Below the pieces are notes generated by a model. That model saw only the letters and a list, made by a program, of their open reading frames with translations, was not told the DNA's origin and ran no database searches. The position numbers and the translations under genes are program-made. A DNA stretch of 64,000 nucleotides. It comes from a virus. Taxonomy: Duplodnaviria; Heunggongvirae; Uroviricota; Caudoviricetes; Crassvirales. Each line of letters opens with the position of its first letter. Position 1 is the stretch's first letter. This document shows positions 5,963-59,511 of this stretch, one piece after another. The stretch spans positions 37,741 to 101,740 of the IMG/VR virus record IMGVR_UViG_3300020045_007777. One strand, written 5' to 3'.

Positions 5963-5965
5963 AAA

Positions 5966-9399: not shown

Positions 9400-9474
9400 A
9401 CATCTAATTATTGATACAAATATAATATATTAAATCATTAAAAACAAATAAATTAATATATATTTTGTAATCAT

Positions 9475-10104: not shown

Positions 10105-10107
10105 AAT

Positions 10108-10572: not shown

Positions 10573-10577
10573 AATTA

Positions 10578-10814: not shown

Positions 10815-11239
10815 TGTTTAACTTGTTTAATTATTTCTCTAGTTCTTTTTTCATTATTTAAAGCTCTTTGTCTTAATATATTTAAATCTCTTTCAGCTTT
10901 ATCTGCTCTTTCTTTTTGATCTTTAATATATGTATTTTGAATATTATCAAATTTCATACTCCATTCAAGATCTTTAGCTTTTTCTGCAGCTCTAACTGTT
11001 TCAAAACATTGCTCACTTTTATCAAAACTAGATTTTCTTTCTTGACTTAATTCAGTTTGAGCTTTTATTTTTTCTTGAATAGCTGTAGATTCTCTTCCAC
11101 TAAAAACAAAGTAAGTTGTTATTAAAGCTGCACCTAAAAGAAAATTAATTACTACAGATAGAACCCAAACTCTATTTCCTGGTTTAGTATCTACAATTTT
11201 ATCAAACCATCCTTTAGCTTTATCTACTCCTTCTAGCAT
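10811..11239 (-). CDS. Single-TM coiled-coil protein (i-spanin or holin-like)
   Basis: The TM segment VWVLSVVINFLLGAALITTYFVF is followed by a charged coiled-coil tail. It sits next to the endolysin. Confidence 0.4.
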   Translation of the reverse strand: MLEGVDKAKGWFDKIVDTKPGNRVWVLSVVINFLLGAALITTYFVFSGRESTAIQEKIKAQTELSQERKSSFDKSEQCFETVRAAEKAKDLEWSMKFDNIQNTYIKDQKERADKAERDLNILRQRALNNEKRTREIIKQVKQ

Positions 11240-11255
11240 TATTATATTTATTATT

Positions 11256-11858
11256 TTATATTCCTTCTATTTTAAATTGTACTACTGTTCCAGCAGGAAC
11301 ACTTCTAAATCCTCCTACAGTTAAACCTGTAGTTACTATAGCCAGACTAAGTAATGTTGAGTTACCTCTAAAGAATCCATGTGTTAATTGTTTAAGATTA
11401 GCACTTAATGATTTCTTAAAGCTTGTAACTGCATCATTAGATGTTGTTGTATTTACAGTAGCTTTACTATCATCAAACCATACTTCAGTAAATATAGGAG
11501 TACCATTTGTTGTATTATCCATAGTAAGATTTATAGTTATCTCACTTGAAGCATTAACTGTAGCTGAACAGAAAAATTCTTTCTTACCAGAATTTATTAC
11601 TAGAGTACCATGAGGTAAAGCTTGCATTCTTTGAAATACTTTCTTCCATCTACCTGTAGTTACATTAGTAGCTTTAACAACATTGTTGTAAACTGTATCT
11701 TCTGTTTCTAGACTATTTACATCCCAGAAATATAAAGCTCCTAAGCCATCTCCCATAGCTAATTTTCCAATATTAATAACAATATTATTTGTACCTTTTA
11801 TTGTTTTTAAATCAGCTAAAGTATCTACACTTACTATATGTTTTAAATTATCTGCCAT
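11256..11858 (-). CDS. Hypothetical tail-associated protein
   Basis: 200-aa ORF directly downstream of the tail-fibre gene. Confidence 0.5.
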   Translation of the reverse strand: MADNLKHIVSVDTLADLKTIKGTNNIVINIGKLAMGDGLGALYFWDVNSLETEDTVYNNVVKATNVTTGRWKKVFQRMQALPHGTLVINSGKKEFFCSATVNASSEITINLTMDNTTNGTPIFTEVWFDDSKATVNTTTSNDAVTSFKKSLSANLKQLTHGFFRGNSTLLSLAIVTTGLTVGGFRSVPAGTVVQFKIEGI

Positions 11859-11877
11859 TAATTTTTAAAATTTTAAA

Positions 11878-14800
11878 TTAAACTGTTTCCCAAGAACTAA
11901 CTCCACCACTTAAAACAAGTCTTTTTAATAAACCATCTACTCTATCTCTTTGAATAATACCATGAGTTGAGATATCCATTTTAATATTACCTCCTACTTC
12001 TAAAATTTCACTTACAGGAATTACTCCAATACCCATGATACCACCAAATCTATTAAATGCAATTGGTTTAGGTGAATTGTCAGCAAAATTAGCTCCTTGA
12101 ATATTAATAATACTACTATTAGTTTGAATATTTATTCTGTTATCAAAAGCACTATTTTCAGAACTAAGTTGACCTGCGGCTGTTATATTACCAGTTACCA
12201 TTTGAAATCCTGTAAAACTATTACCTCCTGCTAAGTTAGCTTTACCATTTAAAGCTGTTTGAGTTGCTGTAGAAATAGGTTTGCTTAAGTCAGAAGTATT
12301 ATCTACATTTCCTAATCCTATTTCAGATTTACCTAATACTACAGTTCCTGTTAAACCATTTACAGATTGTACAGGACTCATTGGAGTAAGTAATTCAGAC
12401 CAGTTTCCTAATGTAGTTGCTGGTTCTTGTCTTAAGATAAATGATTTACTTAAATCAGTTCTAATAGCAACATCTCCTTGTTCAGCTACTAAAGCTAACA
12501 TAGCTGCTTGATTAGCTACTATAAATGTTTCAGATATAGCTAAAGCTGGTATCTGAGAATTAGGTATCTTACCTGCTGAGTTTAATGAAGCATATCCATT
12601 AACTTGACCTTTCTCACTTCTTGTTTGATACAAAGATAAGTTAGGAGAAGAAGCTTGTATCCATTCTTTAGTAGCAAGTATTTTTCCTGTGGTATCTGCA
12701 TTAATTTGAGCTATAGTCTGACTAGGAGCTTCTACTCTACCATCAAATCTAATTCTAAAAGCATCACTTCTTGTTATAGCTTCCCATGCACCTGATGGAG
12801 TAGTAATTGTTCCATTACCAACTACTAATAAAGGTCTGTCAGAACCTTCTTCTGTGTAATCTGTATTTGCTACACCTAAAGCTATTGTATTGAATGTTTT
12901 TGATATAAGAGCTGTACCTATTGCATGAGTAGCAATATCTGATACTCTATTGTTCATACCAGCAGTGAAATTAAATCCATTACCAATTGATGATTCAATT
13001 TCATTATAAGCTCCTATTGCCCAAGAAGTGTATCCTTCAATAACTTTATTGAAAGCTCCTATAGCTCCATTACCTAAAAATCCTGATACTTCATTAGCTG
13101 CTCCTATGGTAAAATTATAATATGAACCTTCTATTATATTACCACTTCCAAGTGCGCCACCTCCAAATATATTTCTTACTTTGTTCTCTGCACCAAATGA
13201 AAAAGAATAATCAGAAGAAACTCCATAATCATTATCTGTTGATTCAGAAGATACAAATGCTAAGTCAACACTACCATTTCCTATTGAGGTGTATTTTGTT
13301 GGGATATACCCTAAAAGTCTATATCCTATATTATCTCCTTCTGTTACTTTTTGAAGTTGAGATTGCTCAAAACCTTCATCATTAATAAAGTGTGAAAGTT
13401 TATTTTTAAAACTTTTTTTATATGGAATATAATCAGGACTACCTAATGAATAATATTCTTCTACTCCAATACCCTGAAAAGTAGTAAAATCATAATATTT
13501 AACTGTATATAGTTTAGCAGGAGTACCTGTTGTATATTCAGAATTTATATAAATTGTACCATCTGCATGAATACTATTATTGTTGGTAATAGAATAAGGT
13601 AAGCTCATTGTTTCTTCTAATTCTAAAGAAGCACAATTAATTCTACTTAAACTTTTATTGCTAGTAGCTATATTAGGACCGGTAGCTGTACCTACTAATA
13701 ACTTATCATTAAATACATTTATCCAATGTGGAACTGGGAAGTTTCCTGCTGTTGGATCATCTTCTAATCCAATCATACTTTGATTTTCTAATTCTCCTTT
13801 AAATAAATCAAACTTTAAAATACCAAGTTTATTTGCTCCTGCTGTTTCTTGCCATCTTGTAGCAATATATACCTTATCATTAGATATGGTAAAAGGATAA
13901 TTTGTAGATACTTTATATTGCAAGTTAGTATTAGGATAAGTAAATATATTTTCAGCTTGACTAAAATCAGTACTAACTCTAACTAAACTTGCAGGTGAAT
14001 TAATACCAGAAGTTACTAAAAAGAACATACTATCTTCATACATTACAAGATTAGTAGTAGTACCTACATAATCTACTAATTCTCCATAAATTTTATCTTG
14101 TAAATCAAAAGGATTTACTTTTAAATATTGAATACCTACTGAATAAGGACTTCGAGGTCTAGTTACAAAATATACAAAACCTCTATGATATTCCATACTA
14201 TGTAATGCACTAGGAATATTAGTGGTTTTAAATATTTCATCAAAGTCTGTAAGTTCATAAGATGTATAAGTAAGTTCATTGTTTATAATTCTACAACCTT
14301 TTAAAGTAAGTCCAAATAATTCTCCATTTTCAGAATCTTTTTGACCATGAATAAATATAGTGTTTTCATCAATTACTATAACAGCGTTAGTAGTCCAAGC
14401 ATTAACAAGATTTCCTATATCTAATGTTCTAAATGTATCTGTAATATAAGTTAAATTTTTTCCAAGATTAGCTACACTATAAGTATTAGAGATAAAGAAA
14501 TCTTTTGGTAAGGATTCTCCATATACAATATTAGGAGTAACATTACTTAATAATTGAAAATCTGCATTAGTAGTTTGTCCAGAACCTTGTCCAAAAGTAC
14601 CACCCTCCCCTAAATACAAATAAGATATTAGGTTATTAACATCAGTTCCTATTTGGAATATGGTATAACCTTCTGATTGACTTTGAATTACATAAGGAGG
14701 ATTATGAGTATTTACATATTGAGAAATAGTTTGTCCTCCTAAAGAAGTAATAGATATAATATCTGTACTTTCTAAATCCTCATAACTGTCTGCGTTCGGA

Positions 14801-20531: not shown

Positions 20532-22052
20532 TTATGACTGATATATAATACTTGGTATTAATGATGCAGTTCTTGATGGATCTTTTACCATAGCACCTTG
20601 CATAGCGTAAGCTGTGATTGTAGCACTATCTTCCATTCTACCCATATTTCCAGATCCTCTTTCACCAGTGAAAGGATTTCTAAAACCAGCTTGGTAACCA
20701 CGAATTTCTTCCATATCACGTACAGCTACTTTTTGGATATTAGGCTCTTCAGTTGAACCAATATAAAGAATATCATATCTATAAGATTCAGCAACACCAC
20801 CATCTGGATGAGGTACTTTATTTCTTACTTTATCATCATACATTGGATCTACCTCAACCATTACTTTAATAGAGTTAGCAAACTCATATTCTGTAAATTG
20901 GTAACCTGCTTTAAAAGCATTTGAATGAAGTGGTGAACTTACTTTTTGAACAACAGCTGGGTTGTTTTGAGAAAGTTCTCTCCAAGCTTGTCCTTCACGA
21001 TTAATTGCTTGACTAAATTGTTTAGCTCCACGTTCACCTGTACGAAGTACAAATACTCTTTCTTTAAAGTCTAACTTACCTTCTGAAAGTTCATGCAACA
21101 TATCTTCCAAAATTCTCAAAGAGAAAATGTTATATGTAACAATATTTGAAACTTCCATTTGTTCTCTAATACCAGAACCAGATTCAATTTTAAATCCTGA
21201 TTTACCAACATTCAAGAAAGTACCATCTTCAGCTCTGTTTGATTTACCAAACATAATATTGTATGCTTTCAATCTTGACAAGTGTTGCTCAAATCTCCAA
21301 TAGATTTCTTGCATCCATGTATTAGATGTTCTTAGTTTACCAGCATTATCAAGTGATTCAATTTTAGCATAGAATACATCTGTAGCATTCAATTTGCAAT
21401 TAATCATATTACCTGGTACAGTTGTTTCAACACGAAGTTGTGACATTGTATTTTTCAATGTATATGGAGAACTGAAATTAATATCAGCACCTTTAATAGA
21501 CATTGTTCTTTCAACTGGAGCACCTTCAATAGAGAATCTTTCTCCTGTTAAAAGTTCAGAACCTGGTACACCTTGATATGTTTCAGGACCACCCCATACT
21601 TCTGCAGTATATACATAAGGTCCATTAGGTCCTTCTGGTTTACCATCAGATAACATACGATATTGATACACATCAGGTTTACTACCTGCAATTACGTGAA
21701 CGTCTGTAAAATATTTTTCAGCGAATACTAGTTCAATTTCAGTACGATTAGCACCTACATTATCAGTATCTTCTGTTACTACAGCTCCTTCAAATCTTGC
21801 TTCAATAAGTGGAATATTACGTTCATGCGAACCAACCATTTTCCAAATGAAATCTCCTTCATCTTCAAGATATTTAACAGGGAACATGTTAAGTACAGTA
21901 TCAAGATTTTTCATTCCTGCTTGTGCTAACAATATACCTGTAATCTGAGATGCAACCATCGGTCTAGTAGCATAGATCTGACCTAAGTGATTTCTAGTTG
22001 TTAATCCTGACCAATATTGTCCTTTAGTCATTACAAATTTACCTACACTCAT
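20532..22052 (-). CDS. Major capsid protein (HK97-fold candidate)
   Basis: 506 aa. It follows the portal and scaffold genes in the canonical order and is followed by a terminator. Its composition is typical of major capsid proteins. Confidence 0.65.
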   Translation of the reverse strand: MSVGKFVMTKGQYWSGLTTRNHLGQIYATRPMVASQITGILLAQAGMKNLDTVLNMFPVKYLEDEGDFIWKMVGSHERNIPLIEARFEGAVVTEDTDNVGANRTEIELVFAEKYFTDVHVIAGSKPDVYQYRMLSDGKPEGPNGPYVYTAEVWGGPETYQGVPGSELLTGERFSIEGAPVERTMSIKGADINFSSPYTLKNTMSQLRVETTVPGNMINCKLNATDVFYAKIESLDNAGKLRTSNTWMQEIYWRFEQHLSRLKAYNIMFGKSNRAEDGTFLNVGKSGFKIESGSGIREQMEVSNIVTYNIFSLRILEDMLHELSEGKLDFKERVFVLRTGERGAKQFSQAINREGQAWRELSQNNPAVVQKVSSPLHSNAFKAGYQFTEYEFANSIKVMVEVDPMYDDKVRNKVPHPDGGVAESYRYDILYIGSTEEPNIQKVAVRDMEEIRGYQAGFRNPFTGERGSGNMGRMEDSATITAYAMQGAMVKDPSRTASLIPSIIYQS

Positions 22053-32458: not shown

Positions 32459-32995
32459 TCAGACTTTAGAATTATGTTGATATATCCTATTACTTAATCC
32501 TGCAGATTTAATATAATAAGTTATTTCTGCTTTACTAAAACCATATTTAATAACATATGGATCATAAGATATTCTTTTATTTTTATTTAATTGTAAATGA
32601 TTCTTAATATCATTTAACATATTAGTTCTTCTTATTTTAAGTTCATCACCTTTTAATACAGTAATTATTTTTTTTCTATTTTGAGTAGTATGAATATTAC
32701 TTTTAAATAATTCATTATTTAATTGTCTTGCTTTAAAACTACCCATTCCAGAGTCATATATTTTTAATTCATTATCTAAATTAATATCTGATAAATCAAA
32801 CCATTCATTTGAAGAATCAGTTTTATAATTTTTAAATTTTTCATGTAATACTTTTTCAATTTGATCTTTTAAATCAAATACATATAAAAATTTTAATGTT
32901 CTAGCATTACTTGTTTGTAAATCTTTTATCCTTTGTAATGGATATTTACTTTTACCTATTTTTACATAGGTATCATCTGTTATTAAATATATCAT
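32459..32995 (-). CDS. T5orf172 (GIY-YIG-like) domain protein
   Basis: IYLITDDTYVKIGKS...RIKDLQTSNARTL...EKVLHEKF...EWFDL matches the T5orf172/MUG113 domain pattern. Confidence 0.6.
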   Translation of the reverse strand: MIYLITDDTYVKIGKSKYPLQRIKDLQTSNARTLKFLYVFDLKDQIEKVLHEKFKNYKTDSSNEWFDLSDINLDNELKIYDSGMGSFKARQLNNELFKSNIHTTQNRKKIITVLKGDELKIRRTNMLNDIKNHLQLNKNKRISYDPYVIKYGFSKAEITYYIKSAGLSNRIYQHNSKV

Positions 32996-33339: not shown

Positions 33340-33540
33340 CTAACTGTTGATTAAAATAGCTCTTAATATCTGTTTTGCAAGCTCAAAATCTTCTTCTTGA
33401 CCACTAACTGTTAAACCTCTTAACTTATTATACATATCTTTATCTATAATATTTGCTAATGTCATATCAGTTAATTTAATTCTAAAATTAGATTTATCTC
33501 TTTCATTATTCCATACTTCATCACTTAAACTACTTATCAT
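33340..33540 (-). CDS. Small-protein family member A1 (C-terminal LAxxIL motif)
   Basis: 66 aa, ending SGQEEDFELAKQILRAI. Confidence 0.5.
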   Translation of the reverse strand: MISSLSDEVWNNERDKSNFRIKLTDMTLANIIDKDMYNKLRGLTVSGQEEDFELAKQILRAILINS

Positions 33541-33718
33541 TCTTATAAATATTTATCATTTCATATGCTAATTGTAACATGTATTCATCTTCTGAATGTA
33601 TAAATTTATATATTTTATCTAATTCTTCATTAGAATGTTTATTTAAAGCACAAAGATTTTGTAATTCCATTATAAGATTATATCTCATTTGCATTTGATT
33701 CATCTTGTATTCTCTCAT
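33530..33718 (-). CDS. Small-protein family member A2
   Basis: 62 aa, ending SEDEYMLQLAYEMINIY. Confidence 0.5.
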   Translation of the reverse strand: MREYKMNQMQMRYNLIMELQNLCALNKHSNEELDKIYKFIHSEDEYMLQLAYEMINIYKNDK

Positions 33719-33905
33719 CTTTTCGTTTACTAATTATTAATTGTTTAGCTAATTCCATTAATTCTAATTCACCAGAATCTAACATATTATAAATATTATC
33801 ATATTCTTCTTTAGTGAAACTATACCTCATATTATAAAGTTCAGGATAATATTGTTTAAATAATAAGAACTTTTTAATATCATAATTTATTTTATCATAT
33901 TTCAT
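33678..33905 (-). CDS. Small-protein family member A3
   Basis: 75 aa, with SGELELMELAKQLIISK. Confidence 0.5.
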   Translation of the reverse strand: MKYDKINYDIKKFLLFKQYYPELYNMRYSFTKEEYDNIYNMLDSGELELMELAKQLIISKRKDERIQDESNANEI

Positions 33906-34191
33906 CTGTTATAATATCATGTTTAGTTTTAATTATTTCTACAGCTAAACTATAATCTTCATTTAGTTCTGAATGTAATAATGTATTAATATTTTTCTTT
34001 TCTATATCTGTAAACTGTGTTGATACTCTCAATATATCAGTATAAATATTTAATCTTACTGCTTTATCAAATTCATATTGTCCTTTATATCCAGTATATA
34101 TTTTAAATTGTCTTTGTTGTTCTTTTGATATTTTTTCTATCATTAAATCTTTTAATAAAGATTTTAAATCTTCTTTTTTTATATTATTCAT
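33895..34191 (-). CDS. Small-protein family member A4
   Basis: 98 aa, with NEDYSLAVEIIKTKH. Confidence 0.5.
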   Translation of the reverse strand: MNNIKKEDLKSLLKDLMIEKISKEQQRQFKIYTGYKGQYEFDKAVRLNIYTDILRVSTQFTDIEKKNINTLLHSELNEDYSLAVEIIKTKHDIITDEI

Positions 34192-34492
34192 ATGTCTTTA
34201 ATATTTCTTCTGCTAATGTATTATCTTCATCTAAATTACTATTAATTAAATTATATGTACAAATATATTGTTCTTTTGTCATATCACTATTTACAAATAC
34301 TTTAGTTAAATTTTCTTTCATTTCTTTTATAAAACGTGTTTTTGAAAATGTTTCATCAAAAAGTTGATCATCATTATAAAATGGATTTCTCATATTCATT
34401 AATTTAGTTGGATCTTGCACCATTATTCCATGACTAGCAAGAGTGTGAAAATCATAATTACTTATATGATTAATATTTATTAAACTATTCAT
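34184..34492 (-). CDS. Small-protein family member A5
   Basis: 102 aa, with DEDNTLAEEILKTYE. Confidence 0.5.
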   Translation of the reverse strand: MNSLININHISNYDFHTLASHGIMVQDPTKLMNMRNPFYNDDQLFDETFSKTRFIKEMKENLTKVFVNSDMTKEQYICTYNLINSNLDEDNTLAEEILKTYE

Positions 34493-34799
34493 TGTTATTT
34501 ATTTTAAGTAGTTCATAAACTACATTTATATCTTCTTCTATACCTGATTCTATTAAAGGTAATAGTTTGTTATTATTTATATTATTATTTTGTAGATATA
34601 ATTTGACTACAGCTACTTTCATTTGATATTTCAATTCATAAAAACATTCATATAAATCTTTACTTATTGCAAAATCATTTAAATCTTTTATTTGTTCAGT
34701 ATATTTAATTTGACCTAAATCAATTATTATATATTCTTTATGTTTTGATTCAGGATATACTCTATCCATAACATATTTTACATCATATTTATTTTCCAT
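34485..34799 (-). CDS. Small-protein family member A6
   Basis: 104 aa, with EEDINVVYELLKINN. Confidence 0.5.
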   Translation of the reverse strand: MENKYDVKYVMDRVYPESKHKEYIIIDLGQIKYTEQIKDLNDFAISKDLYECFYELKYQMKVAVVKLYLQNNNINNNKLLPLIESGIEEDINVVYELLKINNNE

Positions 34800-35121
34800 C
34801 TTTAAATTGTGATTTAAGTATTTCTAATGCTAATGTGAGATTATATAGATCATTTGTCTTAATTAAATCTTGTATATAATCTGTATTTAATTCAGGACTA
34901 ATATGTAACATTCCTAATATTGTTAAATATATCCTGTATGATTCTGATTCATTTTCATCAAATGGTTTATATAAATGATAATGTTGTGATTCTATTTGTT
35001 CTTGTATACCTTTTCCCATATTTATATAGCTAAGTGTTAAATATACATATAATAAATGACTTTTCAAAATTTTTTTTAAAATTTTTTTTTGAATTTTACT
35101 GTAAGTGTGACATAAACCCAC
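34789..35121 (-). CDS. Small-protein family member A7
   Basis: 110 aa, with YIQDLIKTNDLYNLTLALEILKSQ. It is the first gene of the leftward operon. Confidence 0.5.
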   Translation of the reverse strand: MGLCHTYSKIQKKILKKILKSHLLYVYLTLSYINMGKGIQEQIESQHYHLYKPFDENESESYRIYLTILGMLHISPELNTDYIQDLIKTNDLYNLTLALEILKSQFKDGK

Positions 35122-35206
35122 AAACCCACCCCACTCTTTTTTAAGATTGGCGATACCCCGTGGCTTTCACGGAACGTCTAAGTATTAATTATAAAAACAA
35201 AGTATT
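35122..35206. promoter_or_regulatory. Divergent promoter region between the leftward and rightward operons
   Basis: Both gene blocks start here. It contains unusually GC-rich elements (cccacaaacccaccccactc, ggcgataccccgtggctttcacggaacg) in an otherwise AT-rich genome. Confidence 0.4.
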
Positions 35207-35572
35207 ATGTCAAAAGTAAACACATTATTCGTAGCAAGCGTTAAATCATTCAATGGTTCTAACGAAAGACCAGCAGAAGCTGACAAAAATGGTATTATGC
35301 CAGTTATTCTGGATGTAGTAGCAGGGTCTTGTCCTAACAAGAGAGTATTATCTGGTACAGTAGCAGAACGTGCTGACCTAACTAAAGGTAAAGCTTATCT
35401 TGTTAAAGCTGAAGAAATTGAAGCAGATGAATATGGACGTCAGTTCAGATTTACTGCTGTTAAAGAACTTGACTTCTCTGAGTTACTTCAAGCTACTCAA
35501 CACTTTGGCGTTGCCAAGATGATTGATGTAACTGAAGCTGTACCTGCTGAAAATGCTGAGTTCACAGAGTAA
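35207..35572 (+). CDS. Hypothetical early protein, compositionally distinct (GC-richer)
   Basis: 121-aa ORF. Its codon usage is visibly GC-richer than the rest of the genome. It is the first gene of the rightward block and is followed by a strong terminator. Confidence 0.6.
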   Translation: MSKVNTLFVASVKSFNGSNERPAEADKNGIMPVILDVVAGSCPNKRVLSGTVAERADLTKGKAYLVKAEEIEADEYGRQFRFTAVKELDFSELLQATQHFGVAKMIDVTEAVPAENAEFTE

Positions 35573-35585: not shown

Positions 35586-35612
35586 GATAGGAGCCCTTCG
35601 GGGCTTCTTTCT
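35586..35612 (+). terminator. Rho-independent terminator with UUCG tetraloop
   Basis: GGAGCCC-TTCG-GGGCTTC followed by TTTCTTT. Confidence 0.65.
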
Positions 35613-42031: not shown

Positions 42032-42598
42032 CTACTTATAATATTTAGTCATATCTCTAGTTTTAGGAGATTTAATATAATTACATGTTTGATCTTTTAA
42101 AACAATAGTATATCCTTTATAACTTTTTCTTTTTTTATATAATATATCATATAAAATAGAATTATGACACTTAATATATATAGAACAATCTTTAACACAT
42201 TCAAATGATTTAATAAATACATTATTTGTATCATATAAATCAATAGGAATTAATGTTTTAGTATTTCTAATTTTAAGTTTAGTCGCTTCAGAACATTTAA
42301 AACCATTTTCATCTGGTTCATAAATATTATAACCATAATCTCTATGAGCTGAATTAAATTGTTTCATATATTCAACTTCTTTATCTTTTCTTATATTGTT
42401 TTCACATTCTTCTAATATGTAAAAAGAAAATTTATCTTTTCCATATTTATCATAAGCACGTTGTAAATGAATAGAATGGTGAATACCTTTTTTTAATTGA
42501 TAAAAATGTTCATATTTTCTTTTAATATGAGATTTTGAAGAACCAATGTAAACTTTATTGTTTACAAGATTTTTAATAGCATAAATTACTGATTGCAT
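42032..42598 (-). CDS. GIY-YIG homing endonuclease
   Basis: VIYAIKN...KVYIGSS...R...H...LQRAYDKYG...FSFYILEEC...GYN fits the I-TevI-like GIY-YIG core. It is antisense to the surrounding operon. Confidence 0.8.
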   Translation of the reverse strand: MQSVIYAIKNLVNNKVYIGSSKSHIKRKYEHFYQLKKGIHHSIHLQRAYDKYGKDKFSFYILEECENNIRKDKEVEYMKQFNSAHRDYGYNIYEPDENGFKCSEATKLKIRNTKTLIPIDLYDTNNVFIKSFECVKDCSIYIKCHNSILYDILYKKRKSYKGYTIVLKDQTCNYIKSPKTRDMTKYYK

Positions 42599-44878: not shown

Positions 44879-45606
44879 TGGAAGAGATGGACTCCATAAT
44901 ATAGTAATATATTATTAGAAATTGCTTGAATTGCTGGAACGCTAAGTGGAAACATATGCCAATCAGCAGCTAAGCCACAAGGAAGATTGTGGAAAGTTCA
45001 GAGACTAAGGACACTAAGGTGAGCCTACAGCGAGCAACTCCTACATTAAGTTGAGGATGAAGATATAGTCCGATCCTTTAGTGAAAACTAGAGTTGAAAA
45101 ATAGTCTTTCATAGGCTAATTTTCTTTTTATTTGGTTAGTTGAATATTTACCATTTTTTATAGTAACTTTATCATGATATTTTATAATAGTATTTATACG
45201 ATGTATTTTTTTAGGATGTTTAGATTTTAATAATTTACATATTTTAATACATTGTTGACTACTTGAACAAGATAAAGTATAACCTATAGAATGATTGACT
45301 TTTTTACTTGGTTTTGTAGATATATATGTTTTTATTGAATGATTTATCAAAAGATAATCTTGTATTTCATATAAAATTTGTATATATGTATTTGTAAAAT
45401 CTATTTTTATAGATTTATATTTATCATTTTTACTATGTTTTACCATAGTAATTGATCCGTCTGCATCAAAAAAGCCTGAAATGTAATCTAAATTCATAAT
45501 ATTTATATTTAAGATGTGTGGTTAATATCAACCATGTCTAATATACAATATTATTTATTAAAAGTCAAGTAAATATTAAATTAATTTATAATAAAAAAAT
45601 ATTATG
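44879..45606 (+). mobile_element. Group I intron inserted in the tmRNA T-loop
   Basis: P1: exon GGAGUU (44873-78) pairs with IGS GACUCC (44890-95), with a U-G pair at the 5' splice site. P7 strands GACUA (45003-07) and AGAUAUAGUCC (45061-71) match the group I core consensus (cf. Tetrahymena CAGACUA...AAGAUAUAGUC). The 3' terminal G is at 45606. The intron carries an antisense LAGLIDADG ORF. Confidence 0.65.
45078..45497 (-). CDS. LAGLIDADG homing endonuclease (single-motif)
   Basis: YISGFFDADGSI at the N-terminus. 139 aa. It lies inside the intron in opposite orientation. Confidence 0.8.
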   Translation of the reverse strand: MNLDYISGFFDADGSITMVKHSKNDKYKSIKIDFTNTYIQILYEIQDYLLINHSIKTYISTKPSKKVNHSIGYTLSCSSSQQCIKICKLLKSKHPKKIHRINTIIKYHDKVTIKNGKYSTNQIKRKLAYERLFFNSSFH

Positions 45607-52133: not shown

Positions 52134-52358
52134 TTAATGTAAATATAACCAGAATTCCTCAAATTTATGTTGATTATTTTGTATTTTCTTAATTTCGGGT
52201 TTATGTGTTGTTTCAGGTTTTTCAGGAGTTTTCTTGTCTATAAATCTTTGAATTAAAGTACTACCACCTTCTCTTAAATGAAACGTTAATGCTCCATTTT
52301 CATTAGTGATAACTTTAATCATTCTTTTGGATTCTAGATCTAAATATGTATTTAACAT
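52134..52358 (-). CDS. Hypothetical antisense ORF between the polymerase and helicase genes (doubtful)
   Basis: 74-aa ORF antisense to the local operon. It lies in the gap that separates the helicase Walker A region from an upstream in-frame short ORF. Confidence 0.3.
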   Translation of the reverse strand: MLNTYLDLESKRMIKVITNENGALTFHLREGGSTLIQRFIDKKTPEKPETTHKPEIKKIQNNQHKFEEFWLYLH

Positions 52359-52515
52359 ATCAGAATCATAAACAATCTTTCTTGTATTATTTTCATAACT
52401 ATATAATTTATATAAAGCTAATATTTCATCAAAAGATAATCCAGGTATTGAAAAAAGTAAATATTATATATTAACTGCTTCTAGTAAAGTAGGTAAAACT
52501 CAAATTACAGATTTT

Positions 52516-53427
52516 ATGTTTGTATATAATGCATTTAGACAAATTAAAGAAAGAAATTTACCTATAAAACTTGTAATTAAATATTTTTCATTAGAGATGT
52601 CTAAAGAAGAAAAAGTAGTTCAATTTTTATCAAATTTATTATTTATAAAAACTGATGGAAAAATTATTATATCACCTACAAATTTAAGAAGTACTCGTAA
52701 AGCTGTTGATGATGGTATATTAAAACATTTACAATCTGAAAAAAAATATATTGATGAATTTTTATCATGTGTTGAATTTATAGATAATATTAGAAATCCA
52801 TTTGGTATTTTTAATTTCATGCGTGAATATGCTTTAAATAATGGTGTTCAACATAAAAAAGTTATTAGTATTAATGGTGTACCAACAGAAGTTGATGATT
52901 ACTATGAAGAAACTGATCCTGAAGAATATGTAATACCAATTGTAGATCATGCTAAATTATTATCACCTGAAAAAGGTGGAACTATTGGACAAGCTATTGG
53001 AGATTTATCAAGTAGATATTTTATTCAATTAAGAAATAAATATTTTCAATCTCCTGTTTTAATACAACAACAAGCTGCTGCTCAAGAATCTGTAGATAAT
53101 ATGAAAGCAAATAGACTTAGACCAACATTAGATGGTTTAGGTGAGAATAAAACAACTCAACAGGATGCAAATGTTATATTTGGATTATTTAGTCCTTTTA
53201 GACATCATATTCCTGAATATGAAGGATATGATATTAAATTTTTTAAAGATAATATTAGATTCTTAGAAATATTAGGTGGAAGAGAAGGTGGTGCTGGTAC
53301 TATTGCTGCATTATATTTTAATGGTGCTGTAAATTATTTTAAAGAATTACCATCACCTAATGATCAAAATGGAATTGAAATAACAAAAAAAGTTGTATTA
53401 AACAATAGACAAAATGAATGGAAATAA
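52516..53427 (+). CDS. DnaB-like replicative helicase (RecA-fold domain); annotated ATG start probably not the true N-terminus
   Basis: H1a FSLEMS, Walker-B-like IPIVDHAKLL, and IFGLFSPF. The Walker A ILTASSKVGKT is encoded in-frame upstream at 52462-52494. The open frame begins at 52399 with no ATG before 52516. Confidence 0.65.
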   Translation: MFVYNAFRQIKERNLPIKLVIKYFSLEMSKEEKVVQFLSNLLFIKTDGKIIISPTNLRSTRKAVDDGILKHLQSEKKYIDEFLSCVEFIDNIRNPFGIFNFMREYALNNGVQHKKVISINGVPTEVDDYYEETDPEEYVIPIVDHAKLLSPEKGGTIGQAIGDLSSRYFIQLRNKYFQSPVLIQQQAAAQESVDNMKANRLRPTLDGLGENKTTQQDANVIFGLFSPFRHHIPEYEGYDIKFFKDNIRFLEILGGREGGAGTIAALYFNGAVNYFKELPSPNDQNGIEITKKVVLNNRQNEWK

Positions 53428-53684: not shown

Positions 53685-54134
53685 ATGAAACATAGAATAA
53701 CTATAAATAAACTTAATTATTGGAGAAATGGAAATGGTATTACAAATAAATGTTTGAATTTAAAATATTATATTAATAATACTTTATCTACAGAAATTAA
53801 TGTACAACATAATGATGAAATAACAATATTTAGCAAAACTGAAACTTATGTTAAAAATTCTGTATTTTATTTTAATGACAATAAATATAATAATAATTTT
53901 ATTTATAAAATATTCTATGAATCAGGATTTGGTATTAATCGCAGAAGATTAGATTTAGGTAGAAGAAAGTTTAAATATAAAAATTGTAGATCATGTGTAA
54001 TACCTGAAAAAGCTTTTGAATTATTACAAAGTAATGATGATCTTATTAAAAATATAGGACTTGAATTAATATCATTAAAAATATGTGAACATCTTAAATT
54101 AAATAAATTATATGATCTCATTGAATACATCTAA
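53685..54134 (+). CDS. Small-protein family member B1
   Basis: C-terminal FELLQSNDDLIKNIGLELISLKI. Confidence 0.5.
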   Translation: MKHRITINKLNYWRNGNGITNKCLNLKYYINNTLSTEINVQHNDEITIFSKTETYVKNSVFYFNDNKYNNNFIYKIFYESGFGINRRRLDLGRRKFKYKNCRSCVIPEKAFELLQSNDDLIKNIGLELISLKICEHLKLNKLYDLIEYI

Positions 54135-54471
54135 GAAATATCTTTGTAGATTTGTTATGAATAATAGTTTAGAATATAATACTATATTTTTAAAAATTTA
54201 TTTTAAAGGTAGTTATTATTATATTGTATGGAAAAGAGATATGAAAAAATGGTCTATGACTAATTCTAATACTTTTAGTAAAATAAATAAAAAAGTTTAT
54301 ATAAGAAATTATCAATCATTGCATACATTAAATTTAAATTATAAATTAAGTGTTGTAGAATTAGGAGATAATTTTTTTGATATGATACAATCTGATGATA
54401 CATATACTAGACAAATAGCTAGAGTTATTATATCTAATCAATTAGAAAATAATAAAGAAATTAAATTATGA
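54112..54471 (+). CDS. Small-protein family member B2
   Basis: C-terminal FDMIQSDDTYTRQIARVIISNQL. Confidence 0.5.
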   Translation: MISLNTSKKYLCRFVMNNSLEYNTIFLKIYFKGSYYYIVWKRDMKKWSMTNSNTFSKINKKVYIRNYQSLHTLNLNYKLSVVELGDNFFDMIQSDDTYTRQIARVIISNQLENNKEIKL

Positions 54472-54761
54472 ATTGTTATATAAGTTTAGTTGAAGAAAAA
54501 GAACAAAGTTTTTATGCTAATAGAATAAGATATAAATTTTATAAAATATTTTATAAAAATAATTATTATTATATAAATATTAATTCTAATAAAATAACTA
54601 TTCATAAATATTCATCTGAAATTCAAAATTTAAATCTCATTAAAAGATGGGGAAAAGTAAATTTAGAAGAAGGTATAATTAATTTATTAGAAAATTCTTC
54701 ATTAGAAGAAGATAGAATATTATTCTTAGAATTATTAAAAATTAAATTGAATGACATATAA
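54468..54761 (+). CDS. Small-protein family member B3
   Basis: C-terminal INLLENSSLEEDRILFLELLKIKL. Confidence 0.5.
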   Translation: MNCYISLVEEKEQSFYANRIRYKFYKIFYKNNYYYININSNKITIHKYSSEIQNLNLIKRWGKVNLEEGIINLLENSSLEEDRILFLELLKIKLNDI

Positions 54762-55056
54762 TTATATACAAACAATTAGAAATAATGATATTAAAGTATT
54801 TGAAATATGTATTCAATTAGCAAAATTTAGTTATTGTATAATTATATTATATGATGAAATATTAGATATTGATAATAGAAGATTTCAAATACAATTTCAG
54901 GATAGAATGCCTTGGTATATAGATTTAGAAAGATTCAGTCGAGTTGAAGGTTCTGTAGAAATTAATGATAATATATTTGAATTATTAAAATCAAAAGATA
55001 AATTAACACAAATTTTAGGAATAGAATTATTTAAGCAAACTATAAATTATGAGTGA
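54751..55056 (+). CDS. Small-protein family member B4
   Basis: C-terminal FELLKSKDKLTQILGIELFKQTI. Confidence 0.5.
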   Translation: MTYNYIQTIRNNDIKVFEICIQLAKFSYCIIILYDEILDIDNRRFQIQFQDRMPWYIDLERFSRVEGSVEINDNIFELLKSKDKLTQILGIELFKQTINYE

Positions 55057-55549
55057 AATATGGAAAGATATATTAAATTATAATGGTATATATCAAATTA
55101 GTAATATTGGTAGAGTTAAAAGTTATAAAAATAATAAAATAACAATACTTAAAAATTATACTAATAATAAAGGTTATCCTGAAGTAAATTTAAAATATAA
55201 TTCTAAGAAAAAACATTTAATGATTCATAGATTAATTGCTATTTATTTTATTGATAATCCTGAAAATTTACCAGAAGTTAATCATAAAGATGGTAATAAA
55301 TTAAATTATAAAATAAATAACTTAGAATGGTGTACACATGCTGAAAATATTCAACATGCATATGACACTGGATTACAAAAATTACAATTAGGTGAAAAAA
55401 ATTCATCAGCAAAACTTACAGAACAACAAGTTTTAGATATAAGAAAAATAGATAAATCAATTAGTTCTGCTATAATTGCAAAACAATATAATATGGGTAA
55501 AACTGCAATTAAATCTATACGAGCAAGAAAAACCTGGAAACACATTTAA
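55049..55549 (+). CDS. HNH homing endonuclease (NUMOD4 + HNH_3 architecture)
   Basis: WKDILNYNGIYQISNIGRVKS is the NUMOD4-like part. EVNHKDGNKLNYKINNLEWCTHAEN is the HNH part. Confidence 0.8.
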   Translation: MSEIWKDILNYNGIYQISNIGRVKSYKNNKITILKNYTNNKGYPEVNLKYNSKKKHLMIHRLIAIYFIDNPENLPEVNHKDGNKLNYKINNLEWCTHAENIQHAYDTGLQKLQLGEKNSSAKLTEQQVLDIRKIDKSISSAIIAKQYNMGKTAIKSIRARKTWKHI

Positions 55550-55560
55550 AATTAATAAAT

Positions 55561-56520
55561 ATGAAAAATAAGATCATCCTTTGTGGAAAACATGGTAGAC
55601 CTTCAACGAGAGAAGTTTATGCTTCTATGAATTCTGGAATTTTAGTACAGAGAAGACAAATTTTTAGTAAAACAAGACAATTACTAAGACAATATTATAG
55701 AGTATTTAGAAATAATGACTCTAAAACAATGTATAAAGAACCTACTATTAGTACTTTAGGTGCTATTATAGTTCGTTGGGGAACTAGAGAAGAAATTGAA
55801 ACTGATAAAACATCTATTGTTTATAATCAGAGTAAAGCTATTGCTATTGCAACAGATAAAAGACAATCTAGAGAAACTTTTATTGCAAATAATGTAAGTA
55901 CACCAGTATTGGTTACTCCACAAAATTTTCAAGATAGTTATCTACCAATAATTGCTCGACCATTAGTTCATTCTAAAGGTAAAAACTTTGTTACTCTAGC
56001 AACTAGAGCAGCATTTGTAGAGCATTATACAAGAAATAACCAAGGTTGGTATTATTCTCAATTCATTAATAAAGAAAGAGAATTTAGAATTCATTGTGCA
56101 CACAGTAAAGTGTTAGCTGTAATGGAAAAGTCTAATCCTAATAATGGAAATATTGCTTGGAATAGAGCTCAAAATGATACTGAACCATTTGAATATGTTA
56201 AATGGTCACAAGTTGATGATGAGAATTTAAAATGTGTATTAGAAGAAGCTTTAAAAGCTACTGCTGCTATTGGACTAGATATGAGTGGAGTAGATGTTAT
56301 GTTATGTGGAGGTACAGCTTATGTACTAGAGGTTAATACTGCTCCCACTTTAAACACATCACCATATGTAGCTTCAAGATGGGGAATGTATTTTGATTGG
56401 TTATTTAGAGTTGATACAAGACGTGAACATTGGGACTTTTCAGAATTTAAAAAAGGTTCTAGTATGATATGGAAGAATTTTCAATTAACTGAAACTAAAG
56501 AAGTTAAAGAAACAGTTTAA
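55561..56520 (+). CDS. ATP-grasp fold enzyme (RimK-like ligase)
   Basis: IIARPLVHSKGKNFV...YYSQFINKEREFRIHC...GVDVMLCGGTAYVLEVNTAP matches the ATP-grasp K-loop / Q-E-x-I / E-x-N pattern. Confidence 0.5.
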   Translation: MKNKIILCGKHGRPSTREVYASMNSGILVQRRQIFSKTRQLLRQYYRVFRNNDSKTMYKEPTISTLGAIIVRWGTREEIETDKTSIVYNQSKAIAIATDKRQSRETFIANNVSTPVLVTPQNFQDSYLPIIARPLVHSKGKNFVTLATRAAFVEHYTRNNQGWYYSQFINKEREFRIHCAHSKVLAVMEKSNPNNGNIAWNRAQNDTEPFEYVKWSQVDDENLKCVLEEALKATAAIGLDMSGVDVMLCGGTAYVLEVNTAPTLNTSPYVASRWGMYFDWLFRVDTRREHWDFSEFKKGSSMIWKNFQLTETKEVKETV

Positions 56521-56521
56521 T

Positions 56522-56884
56522 ATGAATAATTATAGAGCTGGAAGTGAATTATATAGAGCTTTTGTATATATTTATAGAACACCTATAACAAATACTATTA
56601 TTTATAGTAGATTTGCTATTAATAAATTAGATATAAACTTACAATATGATCATAATAAAAAAACTTATAAAACAGAGAAGTGGGGTTTAAATGAAAATAC
56701 TATTTTAAAAAATATAAAATCACATCAAGATAATAAAACAGAATGTCATTGGATTGAAATAAATCATTTTAAACTTGAAAATAGAGTTATTGATTTAATT
56801 AGATGTGAAGATGAAAATTCTAGAATTGTAGGTTATGAAATATTAAGATTAAAAATAGAAGAACTAAATTTAGTAAAAAAATGA
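56522..56884 (+). CDS. Small-protein family member B5
   Basis: C-terminal IDLIRCEDENSRIVGYEILRLKI. Confidence 0.5.
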   Translation: MNNYRAGSELYRAFVYIYRTPITNTIIYSRFAINKLDINLQYDHNKKTYKTEKWGLNENTILKNIKSHQDNKTECHWIEINHFKLENRVIDLIRCEDENSRIVGYEILRLKIEELNLVKK

Positions 56885-57159
56885 AAAGAATAACAATATT
56901 AATCGTCTTATTGATGATATTTATAACTTGTTTATTTGATTGTAAAGAATCAGTTAGTAGTGAAGAATCTACTTATTATGCTAAGTATAAATCAGGTCAA
57001 TTAGTTTATGTTCAAAATGAACCATTTATTATTAAACATCATGATGAAAAAAGAAATACTTATTGGATGTATAAAATTAATTGTACATCACCAAGTTGCG
57101 GATATGATATATCTGAAAAAGAAATAAGTTTAAAACCAACAAATTATGAAAAAAACTAA
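56881..57159 (+). CDS. Small signal-peptide protein
   Basis: MKRITILIVLLMIFITCLF N-terminus. Confidence 0.45.
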   Translation: MKRITILIVLLMIFITCLFDCKESVSSEESTYYAKYKSGQLVYVQNEPFIIKHHDEKRNTYWMYKINCTSPSCGYDISEKEISLKPTNYEKN

Positions 57160-57442
57160 TACAGCATGTTGTGCATTAGCACAATTAAGTGGTTTAGATA
57201 ATGACACTCCTGTTGAAGAAATAATGAGTGAGTTACTTAAACTTAAAGAAGAAAGTGCACAAGAATTTATTCCAGGTGATACATCAGGATTAGGACAAAA
57301 AGCTATTTTTGTAATTACTACTCCTACTGAAGAAAGTTTAGAAAATAAATTAAAAGTGATTGGATTTAAAGAAATTCATCAATTTGAAAGAAGAAATGGT
57401 TATCCTGAAGGATTATTAAAAATGTATATTATAAATATTTAA
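57146..57442 (+). CDS. Hypothetical protein
   Basis: 98-aa ORF. Confidence 0.45.
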   Translation: MKKTNTACCALAQLSGLDNDTPVEEIMSELLKLKEESAQEFIPGDTSGLGQKAIFVITTPTEESLENKLKVIGFKEIHQFERRNGYPEGLLKMYIINI

Positions 57443-57452
57443 ATTAAAGATT

Positions 57453-57785
57453 ATGAACACAGAAAAAGGAATTTTAAAAGTATTATTACAAGGTATTCAA
57501 CCAGGTTTAAAAATGAAAGATTTAGTTGAAATGGATATGGGTGCATTTTCAGAAGAAATTACTGAAGATGATGATTTAAGAATTATTACTAGAACATTTG
57601 TATCAAATGATGAAAGTATGAATAAATCAATTACACTATATATTCCTAAACAACAAAAACCTGATCAAAATGAAATCAATAAGTTCAATGTTGAAATACA
57701 GTCTGCTGTCAGTAAAGAGGACTATCAAAGAGCAGCTCAAATTAGAGATGAGCGAGATAGATATATTCAAAGTAGAAGTATCTGA
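57453..57785 (+). CDS. Hypothetical protein with C-terminal UVR-like motif
   Basis: EDYQRAAQIRDERDRY resembles the UvrB/UvrC UVR motif. Confidence 0.4.
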   Translation: MNTEKGILKVLLQGIQPGLKMKDLVEMDMGAFSEEITEDDDLRIITRTFVSNDESMNKSITLYIPKQQKPDQNEINKFNVEIQSAVSKEDYQRAAQIRDERDRYIQSRSI

Positions 57786-58068
57786 TCAAAACCATCATTT
57801 TTATTCTCAAACTGGTGAAAAAAAAGATACTTATAATTCTAAAATAATTATAATACCTAAATTAGGTATAGATTTATTATATTTACCTAGAGAAAGAGAT
57901 ATTATTCCTAAATTTAATAAATATATTATAAATGCTTATATGCATACAAATAATATTTCTTATTATTACATTAAAATAGAACCTAATATTCAAAAAATGT
58001 TAATAAATGATGATGAATATGGTAAAAGAATTGCTACTCAAGTAATATTAAATAAATTAAAATTATGA
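57670..58068 (+). CDS. Small-protein family member B6 (start uncertain; internal Met at 57748 is more likely)
   Basis: C-terminal KMLINDDEYGKRIATQVILNKL. The first 115 nt overlap the upstream gene. Confidence 0.45.
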   Translation: MKSISSMLKYSLLSVKRTIKEQLKLEMSEIDIFKVEVSDQNHHFYSQTGEKKDTYNSKIIIIPKLGIDLLYLPRERDIIPKFNKYIINAYMHTNNISYYYIKIEPNIQKMLINDDEYGKRIATQVILNKLKL

Positions 58069-58580
58069 AATATTTAGTAACATATCATATTTGGAAAGGT
58101 AATAAAAATGAACCTTATTATAATTTTAAAATATCATGTAATCCATTAAGATTTTATTTTGATAAATGGGAATGTAAACCTGCACCTCAAAATATATATA
58201 ATTCAAAAGTAATTAGTATTGAAATTGAAGATACTTTATTAATGATTATAAATAAATCTAAAGAAAATTATTATGGATTTAATACAATATGGTATAGTGG
58301 TGCTGGTAATAATCAAATGATAAGAAGAAGTGCTCAAGTATTTAAATCTCAATCAACAGATGAAAATTATGTATTAGCCTATGAAATATTAAAAATAAAA
58401 GTGATTGATGCAATTGCAAGACAAAATTCAGAACGACGTAGTAAAAGCTTGGCAGAAAAACGACAAAAAGGGTACAGTAATATTAGCGACGGGCAGCGGA
58501 AAGTCCAAGATATTTATAAATATACTCAAAAAAGAAAAGGGACAATGGTTACTAGTCGTACCAACAGAAAAACTACGTGA
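58065..58580 (+). CDS. Small-protein family member B7 (3' end uncertain)
   Basis: Contains STDENYVLAYEILKIKVID. Its last ~58 codons overlap the helicase gene and are low-complexity basic. Confidence 0.45.
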   Translation: MKYLVTYHIWKGNKNEPYYNFKISCNPLRFYFDKWECKPAPQNIYNSKVISIEIEDTLLMIINKSKENYYGFNTIWYSGAGNNQMIRRSAQVFKSQSTDENYVLAYEILKIKVIDAIARQNSERRSKSLAEKRQKGYSNISDGQRKVQDIYKYTQKRKGTMVTSRTNRKTT

Positions 58581-59511
58581 TAGAAATTGGAAAGAAGAAT
58601 TTATTAAATGGAATTGTTTAGATTTATATAATAATAATTTACATATTTGTTGTTATGCAAGTTTAAGTAAAATAGATTTAAATAAGTATAATGGTGTAGC
58701 TTTAGATGAATGTCATAATACTACAATTAATAATGTACAAGTATTTAAAGAACATTATAAAAGATTGCATATTCTTTGCCTAACTGCAACAGAACCTAAA
58801 GATGAAATTAAAAGACATGTTTTATATAATATGTTAGAATGTAAAGTTATTTATAATTTAACATTAAAAGAAGCCATTAAAATAGGTATTGTTGCTCCTT
58901 TACAGATATTTATTCATGAATTACAATTAAGTGATATCAAAAATATCAAACAAACGTATAAGGATAAAAGTACAGGTAAACAAAGAGAATTTTATAAATC
59001 TGAAAAAGATAATTATTCATATATTGATAGGAAAATTAATAATAAAAAGTTTCCTACACAATTTGATTATTTATTCAGAGCTAAATTTATATATGACTCT
59101 GTAACTAAGACAGAATATGCAAAAAATCTTTTAAATAAAATTCCAGATGATAAAAGAGTTTTAGTTTTTTCTCAAAGTATTAAACAAATTGAGAAAATAA
59201 TGAAAGAAACTTATCATTCTAAAACAAATGATCATTATTATAATTTATTTATTGATGAAAAATTAAATAAATTAGGAGTGGTTGAATCTCTTAATGAAGG
59301 AGAAAATATTAAAAATTTAGATATTGGACTTATTGTTCAATGTAATTCTAATCCTAAAAATTTATTTCAAAGAATAGGAAGAATTATAAGAAAACGTGAT
59401 AATCATATTGCTCAAATACATATTCTTATGTTAATGAATACTGTAGATGAAAAATGGATTAATAAAATGTTAGAAGAATATGAAGATATTATAACAAGAA
59501 TAAAAATATAA
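58405..59511 (+). CDS. SF2 (DExH-type) DNA helicase
   Basis: Motif I ILATGSGKS, motif II ALDECHN, motif III LTATEP, motif VI QRIGRIIR. Confidence 0.7.
   Translation: MMQLQDKIQNDVVKAWQKNDKKGTVILATGSGKSKIFINILKKEKGQWLLVVPTEKLRDRNWKEEFIKWNCLDLYNNNLHICCYASLSKIDLNKYNGVALDECHNTTINNVQVFKEHYKRLHILCLTATEPKDEIKRHVLYNMLECKVIYNLTLKEAIKIGIVAPLQIFIHELQLSDIKNIKQTYKDKSTGKQREFYKSEKDNYSYIDRKINNKKFPTQFDYLFRAKFIYDSVTKTEYAKNLLNKIPDDKRVLVFSQSIKQIEKIMKETYHSKTNDHYYNLFIDEKLNKLGVVESLNEGENIKNLDIGLIVQCNSNPKNLFQRIGRIIRKRDNHIAQIHILMLMNTVDEKWINKMLEEYEDIITRIKI

Follow-up and report, generated by a model that had tools for sequence, protein, structure and literature searches.

A phage-restricted family of small proteins with a short predicted helical hairpin, amplified in two variable gene arrays of a crAss-like phage

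The main reservoir of host-takeover and anti-defence functions still to be discovered is made up of the small early proteins of phages, which are mostly singletons that offer no point of entry for study. In some described systems, dissimilar proteins are tied together by one short module. The internal proteins (IP) of phage T4, namely IPI, IPII and IPIII, and the polymorphic locus that encodes them comprise dissimilar small proteins with one short terminal module, in a hypervariable locus whose content varies between strains; this module, some 10 residues at the N-terminus, targets the proteins to the capsid and is cut by the prohead protease, and one such protein, IPI*, is an anti-restriction protein. 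In the poxvirus ankyrin/PRANC proteins a variable, target-binding N-terminal part is followed by a short, constant, F-box-like helical motif at the C-terminus, which plugs into one host machine. The SHOCT domain is short (about 30 amino acids), consists of two helices, is mostly C-terminal (within 50 residues), has a strongly conserved glycine and glutamate, and has no known function (Eberhardt et al. 2013, PMC3581485). Here we describe a family of 14 small genes in a 64,000-nucleotide stretch of a Crassvirales phage (IMG/VR record IMGVR_UViG_3300020045_007777, positions 37,741 to 101,740), referred to as the window. Their products have in common a module of about 35-45 residues, predicted to be a helical hairpin, and the genes lie in two arrays, termed A and B.

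The window is a phage genome segment of 25% GC with two divergent modules, one on the minus strand (1-35121) and one on the plus strand, from 35207 on. Among GenBank phages, only Cellulophaga phage phi14:2 (Crassvirales, Steigviridae) is related to it at the DNA level, with 75% identity in part of the DNA polymerase region. For the marine and environmental crAss-like relatives that infect Bacteroidota, there is almost no functional annotation of accessory genes. Array B occupies part of the plus-strand replicative module, between a DnaB-like helicase gene (52516-53427) and a superfamily 2 (SF2) helicase gene (58408-59511). Its seven members are B1 (53685-54134, 149 amino acids, hairpin encoded at 54015-54083), B2 (54112-54471, 119 amino acids, hairpin at 54376-54444), B3 (54468-54761, 97 amino acids, hairpin at 54678-54749), B4 (54751-55056, 101 amino acids, hairpin at 54976-55044), B5 (56522-56884, 120 amino acids, hairpin at 56789-56857), B6 (57748-58068, 106 amino acids from the ATG at 57748, hairpin at 57991-58059) and B7 (58065-58580, 171 amino acids, hairpin at 58341-58409). 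For B6 the longest open reading frame (ORF) runs from 57670 to 58068, and the true start is probably 57748, as the gene call (P0013) is 106 amino acids long. Array A consists of seven minus-strand genes within 33340-35121, at 33340-33540, 33530-33718, 33678-33905, 33895-34191, 34184-34492, 34485-34799 and 34789-35121. Together the two arrays make up about 14% of the genes in the window. Since members overlap by 4-23 nucleotides or abut, both arrays are operon-like.

An initial annotation, made from the letters of the DNA, had proposed seven plus-strand ORFs with a common C-terminal signature. All seven were found where it had placed them, with the peptides it quoted. The signature is indeed at the C-terminus in six of the seven. 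In 58065-58580, that is B7, it is internal, and a basic tail of 56 residues follows; in the other members of the family 0-17 residues separate the end of the motif from the C-terminus.

To assess whether the 14 ORFs form one family, we relied on alignment and on profile hidden Markov models (HMMs). In an unguided MAFFT alignment the motif of all 14 ORFs was aligned in register. With leave-one-out HMMs, 12 of the 14 members scored above every other ORF in the window (about 190). When a model was built solely from motif instances of related metagenomic phages, with no window sequence, the family filled the top 10 places among 202 ORFs. An out-group model, derived from 13 members from other phage lineages and containing nothing from the window or its clade, ranked 13 of the 14 members at positions 1-13 among the 202 window ORFs; ten of these had E<=0.05, five in each array. 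Five array-A members reached 18.9-32.5 bits with this model. In array B the scores were 18.2 bits for B7 (rank 6), 13.8 bits for B5 (E 3e-4; 8.5 bits in the leave-one-out test; homologs P0010 and P0017), 11.9 bits for B4 (20.4 bits with the relatives-only model), 9.8 bits for B3, 7.0 bits for B2 (E 0.047) and a weak 2.8 bits for B1 (rank 13; 13.8 bits leave-one-out). The weakest member is B6 (57670-58068), which neither the leave-one-out nor the out-group model recovers and which is linked to the family by 37.5% identity over 56 amino acids to B2.

The proposal that the two arrays are one family of 14 members in two oppositely oriented clusters was to stand or fall with supported homology between them. 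Not only does the out-group model find both arrays; in a profile comparison with hhalign, array B matched array A with P=2.1e-4 and 30 columns in register. The expansion, which had been called striking, is real, with 14 copies in 64 kb. All close relatives (terminase at least 77% identical) have members at the array-A position, and three relatives have members at the array-B position; copy number ranges from 2 to 5 at the former and from 3 to 5 at the latter, and orthologs of array A were identified at the same position in L028 and L041-L050. Beyond this range, essentially no motif matches were found in about 1.2 Mb of AT-rich relatives around terminase and PhoH genes (terminase 56-60% identical) or in the complete phi14:2 genome. 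These relatives are as AT-rich as the window and, like phi14:2, lack the motif, which rules out a compositional artefact of AT-richness. We conclude that the 14 ORFs are real genes and belong to a multigene family that is restricted to phages.

The family is also rare. An exhaustive hmmsearch with a 42-column profile against 1.84e9 representative proteins returned 29 clusters at E<=1e-3, all of 62-187 amino acids, with the module at the extreme C-terminus in 28 of the 29. A word-indexed search of 5.8 billion proteins recovered nothing beyond the contig of the window itself and relatives very close to it; it took the exhaustive search to reach the out-group. A first local iterative HMM extension had drifted into the variable region and was discarded. 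No true match was obtained by tblastn with two window and two out-group members against 50,697 GenBank phages, nothing fell below E 0.047 in a PDB sequence search with the 14-member profile, and PHROGs and Pfam scans of the 14 window members and of a 28-member set gave no significant family-wide match. Stray matches of single members below 1e-3 were to Crass_capsid and phrog_11589 (the 33895-34191 group, discussed below) and to DUF285 and Styelin (one member each). The family and its amplification are therefore new, being absent from Pfam, PHROGs, PDB and GenBank phages and represented by only those 29 clusters. Its kind is already known: short terminal helical modules on diverse small proteins, and hypervariable phage cassette arrays.

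The consensus of the module over the 14 window members is I-x-x-L-x-x-S-x-D-x-E-x-x-x-L-A-x-E-I-L-K-x-K. With the out-group included it becomes I-T-x-E-E-Y-x-x-I-x-x-M-I-x-S-x-D-x-E-N-x-x-[LV]-A-x-E-I-I-K-x-K, in which the Ser is nearly invariant. In the predicted structure a short helix is followed by a turn capped by Ser/Asp and then by an amphipathic helix, and from the alignment and the models the Thr-x-Glu-Glu and Ser-x-Asp-x-Glu stretches would occupy expected helix N-cap positions. With its conserved polar residues so placed, the module looks like a small unit of folding and interaction, and not like a catalytic site. An AlphaFold2 (AF2) model of B3 consists of five beta strands followed by helices at residues 68-75 and 80-95, with a predicted local distance difference test (pLDDT) score of 65. 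The model of 33895-34191 is all-helical, and its three C-terminal helices have pLDDT values of 79-92.

Like SHOCT and SHOCT_2 (PF09851, PF20612), this module is a short, predicted two-helix unit found mainly at the C-terminus of proteins with many different N-terminal parts, and sometimes at the N-terminus or in duplicate. Unlike SHOCT, it does not conserve the glycine, it has an extra and better conserved helix (S-x-D-x-E-N-x-x-L-A-x-E-I-I-K), and it occurs only in small phage proteins that are amplified into arrays. Array A and the out-group commonly have a Glu in T-x-E-E, which array B lacks. No sequence reached the SHOCT_2 gathering threshold: three of 28 members matched at E 0.006-0.013, the score shown being 16.1 bits against a cut-off of 24, and these weak matches span the stretch I-T-x-E-E-Y-x-x-I-x-x-L-L. 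Among the window members scanned against the SHOCT models, none was reported above the listing limit. HEAT-like repeats (HEAT_2, PF13646; AlkD-type DNA_alkylation, PF08713) resemble the module in their alpha-alpha hairpin pattern, L-L-x-S/D-x-D-x-E-x-x-x-L-A-x-x-I-L. Artificial concatemers of out-group units matched DNA_alkylation (4.8e-7) and HEAT_2 (0.0067), and a concatemer from a further phage contig, L104, matched HEAT_2 (6.4e-5) as well as RIX1 and IBN_N. No natural member matches the HEAT models, however, and a concatemer of window units matches nothing. Instead of a tandem solenoid of the HEAT type, family proteins have a single unit each (two in protein P0027 of L104). The module is thus only loosely similar to HEAT and SHOCT units. 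The likeness to HEAT concerns shape, with homology unsupported, and by their sequence matches the proteins belong to neither SHOCT nor HEAT.

The L104 contig (Logan SRR22868769, 69 kb, 37% GC) comes from another phage lineage and has about 10 carriers of the module within 10 kb (3031-13240). In most of them the module is N-terminal, and P0027, which has two copies, is encoded directly downstream of a ClpS homolog. In phi14:2, the g109 product (L097 47152-47343) matches the N-terminal part of 33895-34191 and ends without the hairpin. That is, the module can be N-terminal, duplicated, or missing beside the same N-terminal part, from which we conclude that it is portable and has been joined to different partners. 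The genes around out-group members are of phage replication or early type, including DNA ligase with uracil-DNA glycosylase (UDG), and Sak4-like AAA_24 with ClpS. As a separate observation, a B5 ortholog in L003 (11232-11468, 78 amino acids) keeps the N-terminal part and stops before the hairpin; it may be a truncated or decaying copy.

The initial annotation had further suggested a modular binding domain with a different N-terminal specificity region in each copy. This was right in that the hairpin is constant and the N-terminal halves vary, with binding and specificity as putative roles, but the N-termini are not all unrelated. The array-B members have a common beta-rich N-terminal part, and several can be aligned over their full length: B2 and B3 are 28% identical over 78 amino acids, B3 and B5 27% over 81, and B1 and B3 26% over 92. 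At the DNA level, the N-terminal parts of B2 and B3 contain a repeat of 79% identity (54183-54224 and 54533-54574). These paralogies favor the view that this is an ordinary tandem-duplication family, made up of fast-diverging, full-length paralogs that act independently, in which the hairpin is simply the most constrained structural element and has no common partner. It also fits this view that the Thr-x-Glu-Glu and Ser-x-Asp-x-Glu stretches, on inspection of the alignment, are typical helix N-caps, and that the hairpin packs against the rest of the protein in the AF2 models. Against it, the all-helical array-A members and the beta-rich array-B members have different predicted N-terminal folds and the same module. 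Together with the N-terminal and duplicated modules of L104 and with g109, this shows that the module moves independently of the remainder of the protein. We regard the duplication explanation as possible, though rather doubtful.

The gene content of array B differs between nearly identical strains. In a sister strain, L093, the genes for DnaB, for an 86-amino-acid protein and for the ATP-grasp enzyme inside array B are 97-99% identical in DNA to those of the window. Yet L093 has an extra 102-amino-acid family member after B1, a 40%-identical member in place of B3, and a 111-amino-acid member in the slot that is filled in the window by an HNH nuclease gene. B4 is 97% identical between the two. 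The L093 allele of B1 (P0005) is 81% identical, and almost all of the differences fall within its first 85 residues. In B2, codons 1-10 (MISLNTSKKY, 54112-54141) match the start of the 102-amino-acid cassette found only in L093 (2762-3070), and the remainder of B2 matches the next L093 gene (3048-3389). This pattern is consistent with a hybrid start for B2, produced by deletion of a cassette through recombination at a short repeat coding for K-K-Y.

The divergence between the window and L093 was quantified with the Nei-Gojobori method as nonsynonymous (dN) and synonymous (dS) rates. In the flanking genes dN is at most 0.006 and dS is 0-0.05. In the N-terminal 60% of B1 and B2, dN is 0.17 and 0.34, respectively, and dS is 0.21 and 0.28. 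In the C-terminal 40% the corresponding values are 0.007 and 0.086 for dN, and 0.064 and 0.169 for dS. The N-terminal halves are thus hypervariable, diverging about 10-fold faster than the flanking genes, and the hairpin is constant. Two further differences from L093 lie beside the array. A 313-bp segment of the window (52138-52450) is inverted relative to L093, with 98.7% identity on the opposite strand, and about 570 bp are missing. The loss takes in the first ~62 codons of the gene for the DnaB-like helicase (52516-53427), so that this gene is N-terminally truncated in the window (303 versus 365 amino acids). The inversion and loss could be a real rearrangement or an assembly error.

The arrangement of the cassettes raises the question of whether conservation acts on the nucleic acid, with A-rich 3' ends that act as leaders for initiating translation of the next gene or as joints for cassette recombination. 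Bacteroidota favor A-rich leaders, the overlapping or abutting genes place each motif just 5' of the next start codon, and when the window is compared with L093 the cassettes begin and end at gene junctions, one deletion having used a short repeat at two gene starts. However, the DNA coding for the motif is only about 70% identical between copies and substitutions are conservative at the protein level, out-group members at 33-42% GC keep the peptide motif, the motif is present at N-termini and in the genes that end the arrays as well, and anything from 0 to 59 codons separates it from the stop codon. A nucleic-acid function is therefore hardly credible. The low identity between copies also rules out a plain DNA repeat.

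Our preferred reading, which we hold with about equal measures of belief and doubt, is that the members are accessory host-takeover, anti-defence or exclusion proteins in which the variable part engages targets and the hairpin handle either docks or is a folding or association core. The variable N-terminal parts would engage different targets. The constant hairpin would be their common handle, which docks onto one shared partner or provides a shared folding or association core. New specificities would arise by gain, loss and replacement of cassettes, and by recombination that swaps N-terminal halves, as may be expected in an arms race. With respect to timing, in the phi14:2 transcriptome the rightward replicative module is early and depends on the virion RNA polymerase, while the leftward unit is middle to late and depends on the host RNA polymerase, with middle promoters at g108 and g110 (bioRxiv 10.1101/2020.03.07.982082). 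By analogy, early expression is probable for array B and middle expression for array A, which heads the leftward unit.

Several points weigh against the accessory-protein reading. The expression timing is taken from phi14:2, a relative without the family. Family members have no homology to anti-defence or host-takeover families in PHROGs and Pfam (PADLOC was not searched). The AF2 models are of low to moderate confidence (pLDDT 65 and 72) and derive from 8-sequence alignments, and the conserved hairpin could simply be the slowest-evolving structural core. Lastly, in the variable halves dS is raised along with dN (dN/dS 0.8-1.2, from small counts). Since the two rise together, allele exchange is as likely as positive selection in place; the raised dS points to allele exchange or relaxed constraint, and positive selection is unproven.

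A further reading, which we consider improbable, is that the hairpin is a portable plug that docks otherwise unrelated small effectors onto one hub, or that hairpins stack on each other, following, in a bacterial virus, the F-box/PRANC logic of eukaryotic viruses, with new specificities made by a swap of the variable half. The family resembles the poxvirus ankyrin/PRANC proteins, and other viral multigene families, in this logic of a variable N-terminal part and a constant C-terminal helical motif, and in that copy number and content vary by strain. It differs from them in that there is no sequence relation and that bacteria are without a ubiquitin system. The hub could be a host protease/chaperone adaptor system or RNA polymerase; a single, anecdotal observation points to it, namely the ClpS gene that directly precedes the gene for the two-hairpin protein of L104. 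If the hairpin is such a docking plug, phage effectors would have a new organizing principle; if it is no more than a folding core, the family is still a clean case of clade-specific gene-family expansion. The family is set apart from the singletons by its recognizable short module, its constant/variable architecture and its turnover between near-identical strains. The 42-column profile provides a search key for such cassettes in metagenomes, and a single defined hairpin peptide could be used as bait for a common partner.

One subgroup of array A carries a segment that resembles a capsid protein. In 33895-34191 (minus strand) and its orthologs, the N-terminal ~45 residues are similar to a stretch of the major capsid protein of the phage itself, residues ~305-350 (gene at 20532-22052, minus strand), with the pattern R-x-F-x-x-x-T-G-x-x-G-x-x-Q-F-x-x-A in both. 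The group matches Crass_capsid at E 3.8e-5 and 2.9e-6, which is below the Pfam threshold, and phrog_11589 at 8.8e-5, and a comparison with hhalign gave P 3.3e-4; its members are the top non-capsid matches of a local capsid HMM. The g109 product of phi14:2 also has the capsid-like part. Were the hairpin a plug, this fragment would be one more variable half, for example a decoy for a capsid-sensing host defence.

The capsid likeness also bears on the alternative that the hairpin is a capsid-targeting signal, by which small proteins are loaded into the virion and ejected into the host, as with the T4 internal proteins. The family and the T4 proteins are alike in being small and dissimilar, in having a short common terminal module, and in that gene content varies among close phages. 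Array A, moreover, heads the leftward operon that holds the structural genes, and crAss-like phages do eject virion proteins, such as the virion RNA polymerase of phi14:2 (bioRxiv 10.1101/2020.03.07.982082). In contrast to the T4 module, however, that of the family is a helical hairpin of ~35 residues and mostly C-terminal, and half of the copies fall within a module presumed to be early. These copies, those of array B, belong to the replicative module; in phi14:2 this module is early, and that is the wrong stage for packaging. In the proteomics-based annotation of phi14:2, no small leftward gene, g109 included, is given as a virion protein, and the likeness to capsid is restricted to one subgroup. 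We thus consider capsid targeting quite unlikely.

Array B had also been described as interleaved with an HNH nuclease and an ATP-grasp gene, and Pfam and PHROGs matches confirm the identity of both. The ORF at 55049-55549 (plus strand) encodes an HNH homing endonuclease, with NUMOD4 at 45.4 bits (cut-off 23.4), HNH_3 at 29.9 bits (24.8) and phrog_59 at 1.5e-51. The ORF at 55561-56520 (plus strand) encodes a RimK-like ATP-grasp ligase, with Pfam RimK at 23.3 bits against a cut-off of 21 and phrog_2599 at 1.7e-20; it is homologous to phi14:2 g038 (E 1e-10), and against the NCBIfam equivalog models all scores were far below the cut-offs. Neither gene belongs to the family. The ATP-grasp gene is a conserved neighbor, lying inside array B in the window, in L001-L003 and in L093.

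This conserved position, the RimK-like family of the enzyme and the conserved Ser, Asp, Glu and Lys of the motif suggest that the members might be substrates of the ligase, which would extend their C-termini with amino acids or cross-link these side chains as in graspetides. The distribution of the two argues otherwise. Array A is 20 kb distant and adjoins no ATP-grasp gene, phi14:2 has the ATP-grasp homolog and no family member, and no ATP-grasp gene is annotated around out-group members in the stretches of L098, L104 and L106 that were covered. There is no conservation at the extreme C-termini, the motif is predicted to be an amphipathic helix and not a loop-forming core, and the ligase matches generic RimK-like models and no graspetide-type ligase models. 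Array A and the out-group members, not being beside an ATP-grasp gene and having a motif predicted to be helical, do not look like graspetide precursors. A substrate role is therefore very improbable, and the substrate, capsid-targeting and nucleic-acid explanations are all less likely than the accessory-protein reading. As phi14:2 has the ligase homolog without the family and out-group members adjoin other genes, the ATP-grasp link is positional; the HNH gene, for its part, takes the place of a family cassette found in L093, and by this gene-order comparison we take both the HNH and the ATP-grasp genes to be neighbors by position, not parts of a system.

Array B further contains three non-family ORFs, at 56881-57159, 57146-57442 and 57453-57785. 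In the last of these (plus strand), which is conserved in L001 and L003, residues 81-100 match a UVR motif of the UvrB/UvrC type with a score that falls just short of the Pfam cut-off (20.9 versus 21.5 bits). At the end of the array, the tail of B7 overlaps the start of the SF2 helicase gene (phrog_16 at 5.8e-28) by ~175 nucleotides in another frame (58405/58408; 58405-58580). The L001 ortholog of B7 (11768-12097) likewise overlaps its helicase gene (12036-13127), by ~60 nucleotides.

At the boundary of array A, the longest ORF of 34789-35121 (minus strand) begins with GTG. A sigma-70-like promoter match lies inside it (35067-35040), and the first ATG is at 35019; the product probably starts there, which would give 76 and not 110 amino acids. 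A scan for sigma-70-type promoters was not above shuffled expectation. The region between array A and the first plus-strand gene (35105-35206) has a GC content that is unusually high in this genome, and a small hairpin, CGTGGCTTTCACG, lies in it; the region gave no Rfam match and a fold z-score of only -0.8. That first gene (35207-35572) encodes a 121-amino-acid protein rich in Ala, Val and Glu, with no PHROGs match and no related IMG/VR locus, and a strong terminator-like hairpin is found at 35589-35608. Elsewhere in the window, three minus-strand ORFs (42032-42598, 45078-45497 and 32459-32995) are likely mobile endonucleases on inspection by eye, with GIY-YIG-like, LAGLIDADG-like and T5orf172-like features; all of them lie opposite to, or inserted among, the genes of the modules. 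In L003, a DnaB-like gene (6469-8640) is split by a GIY-YIG-type ORF.

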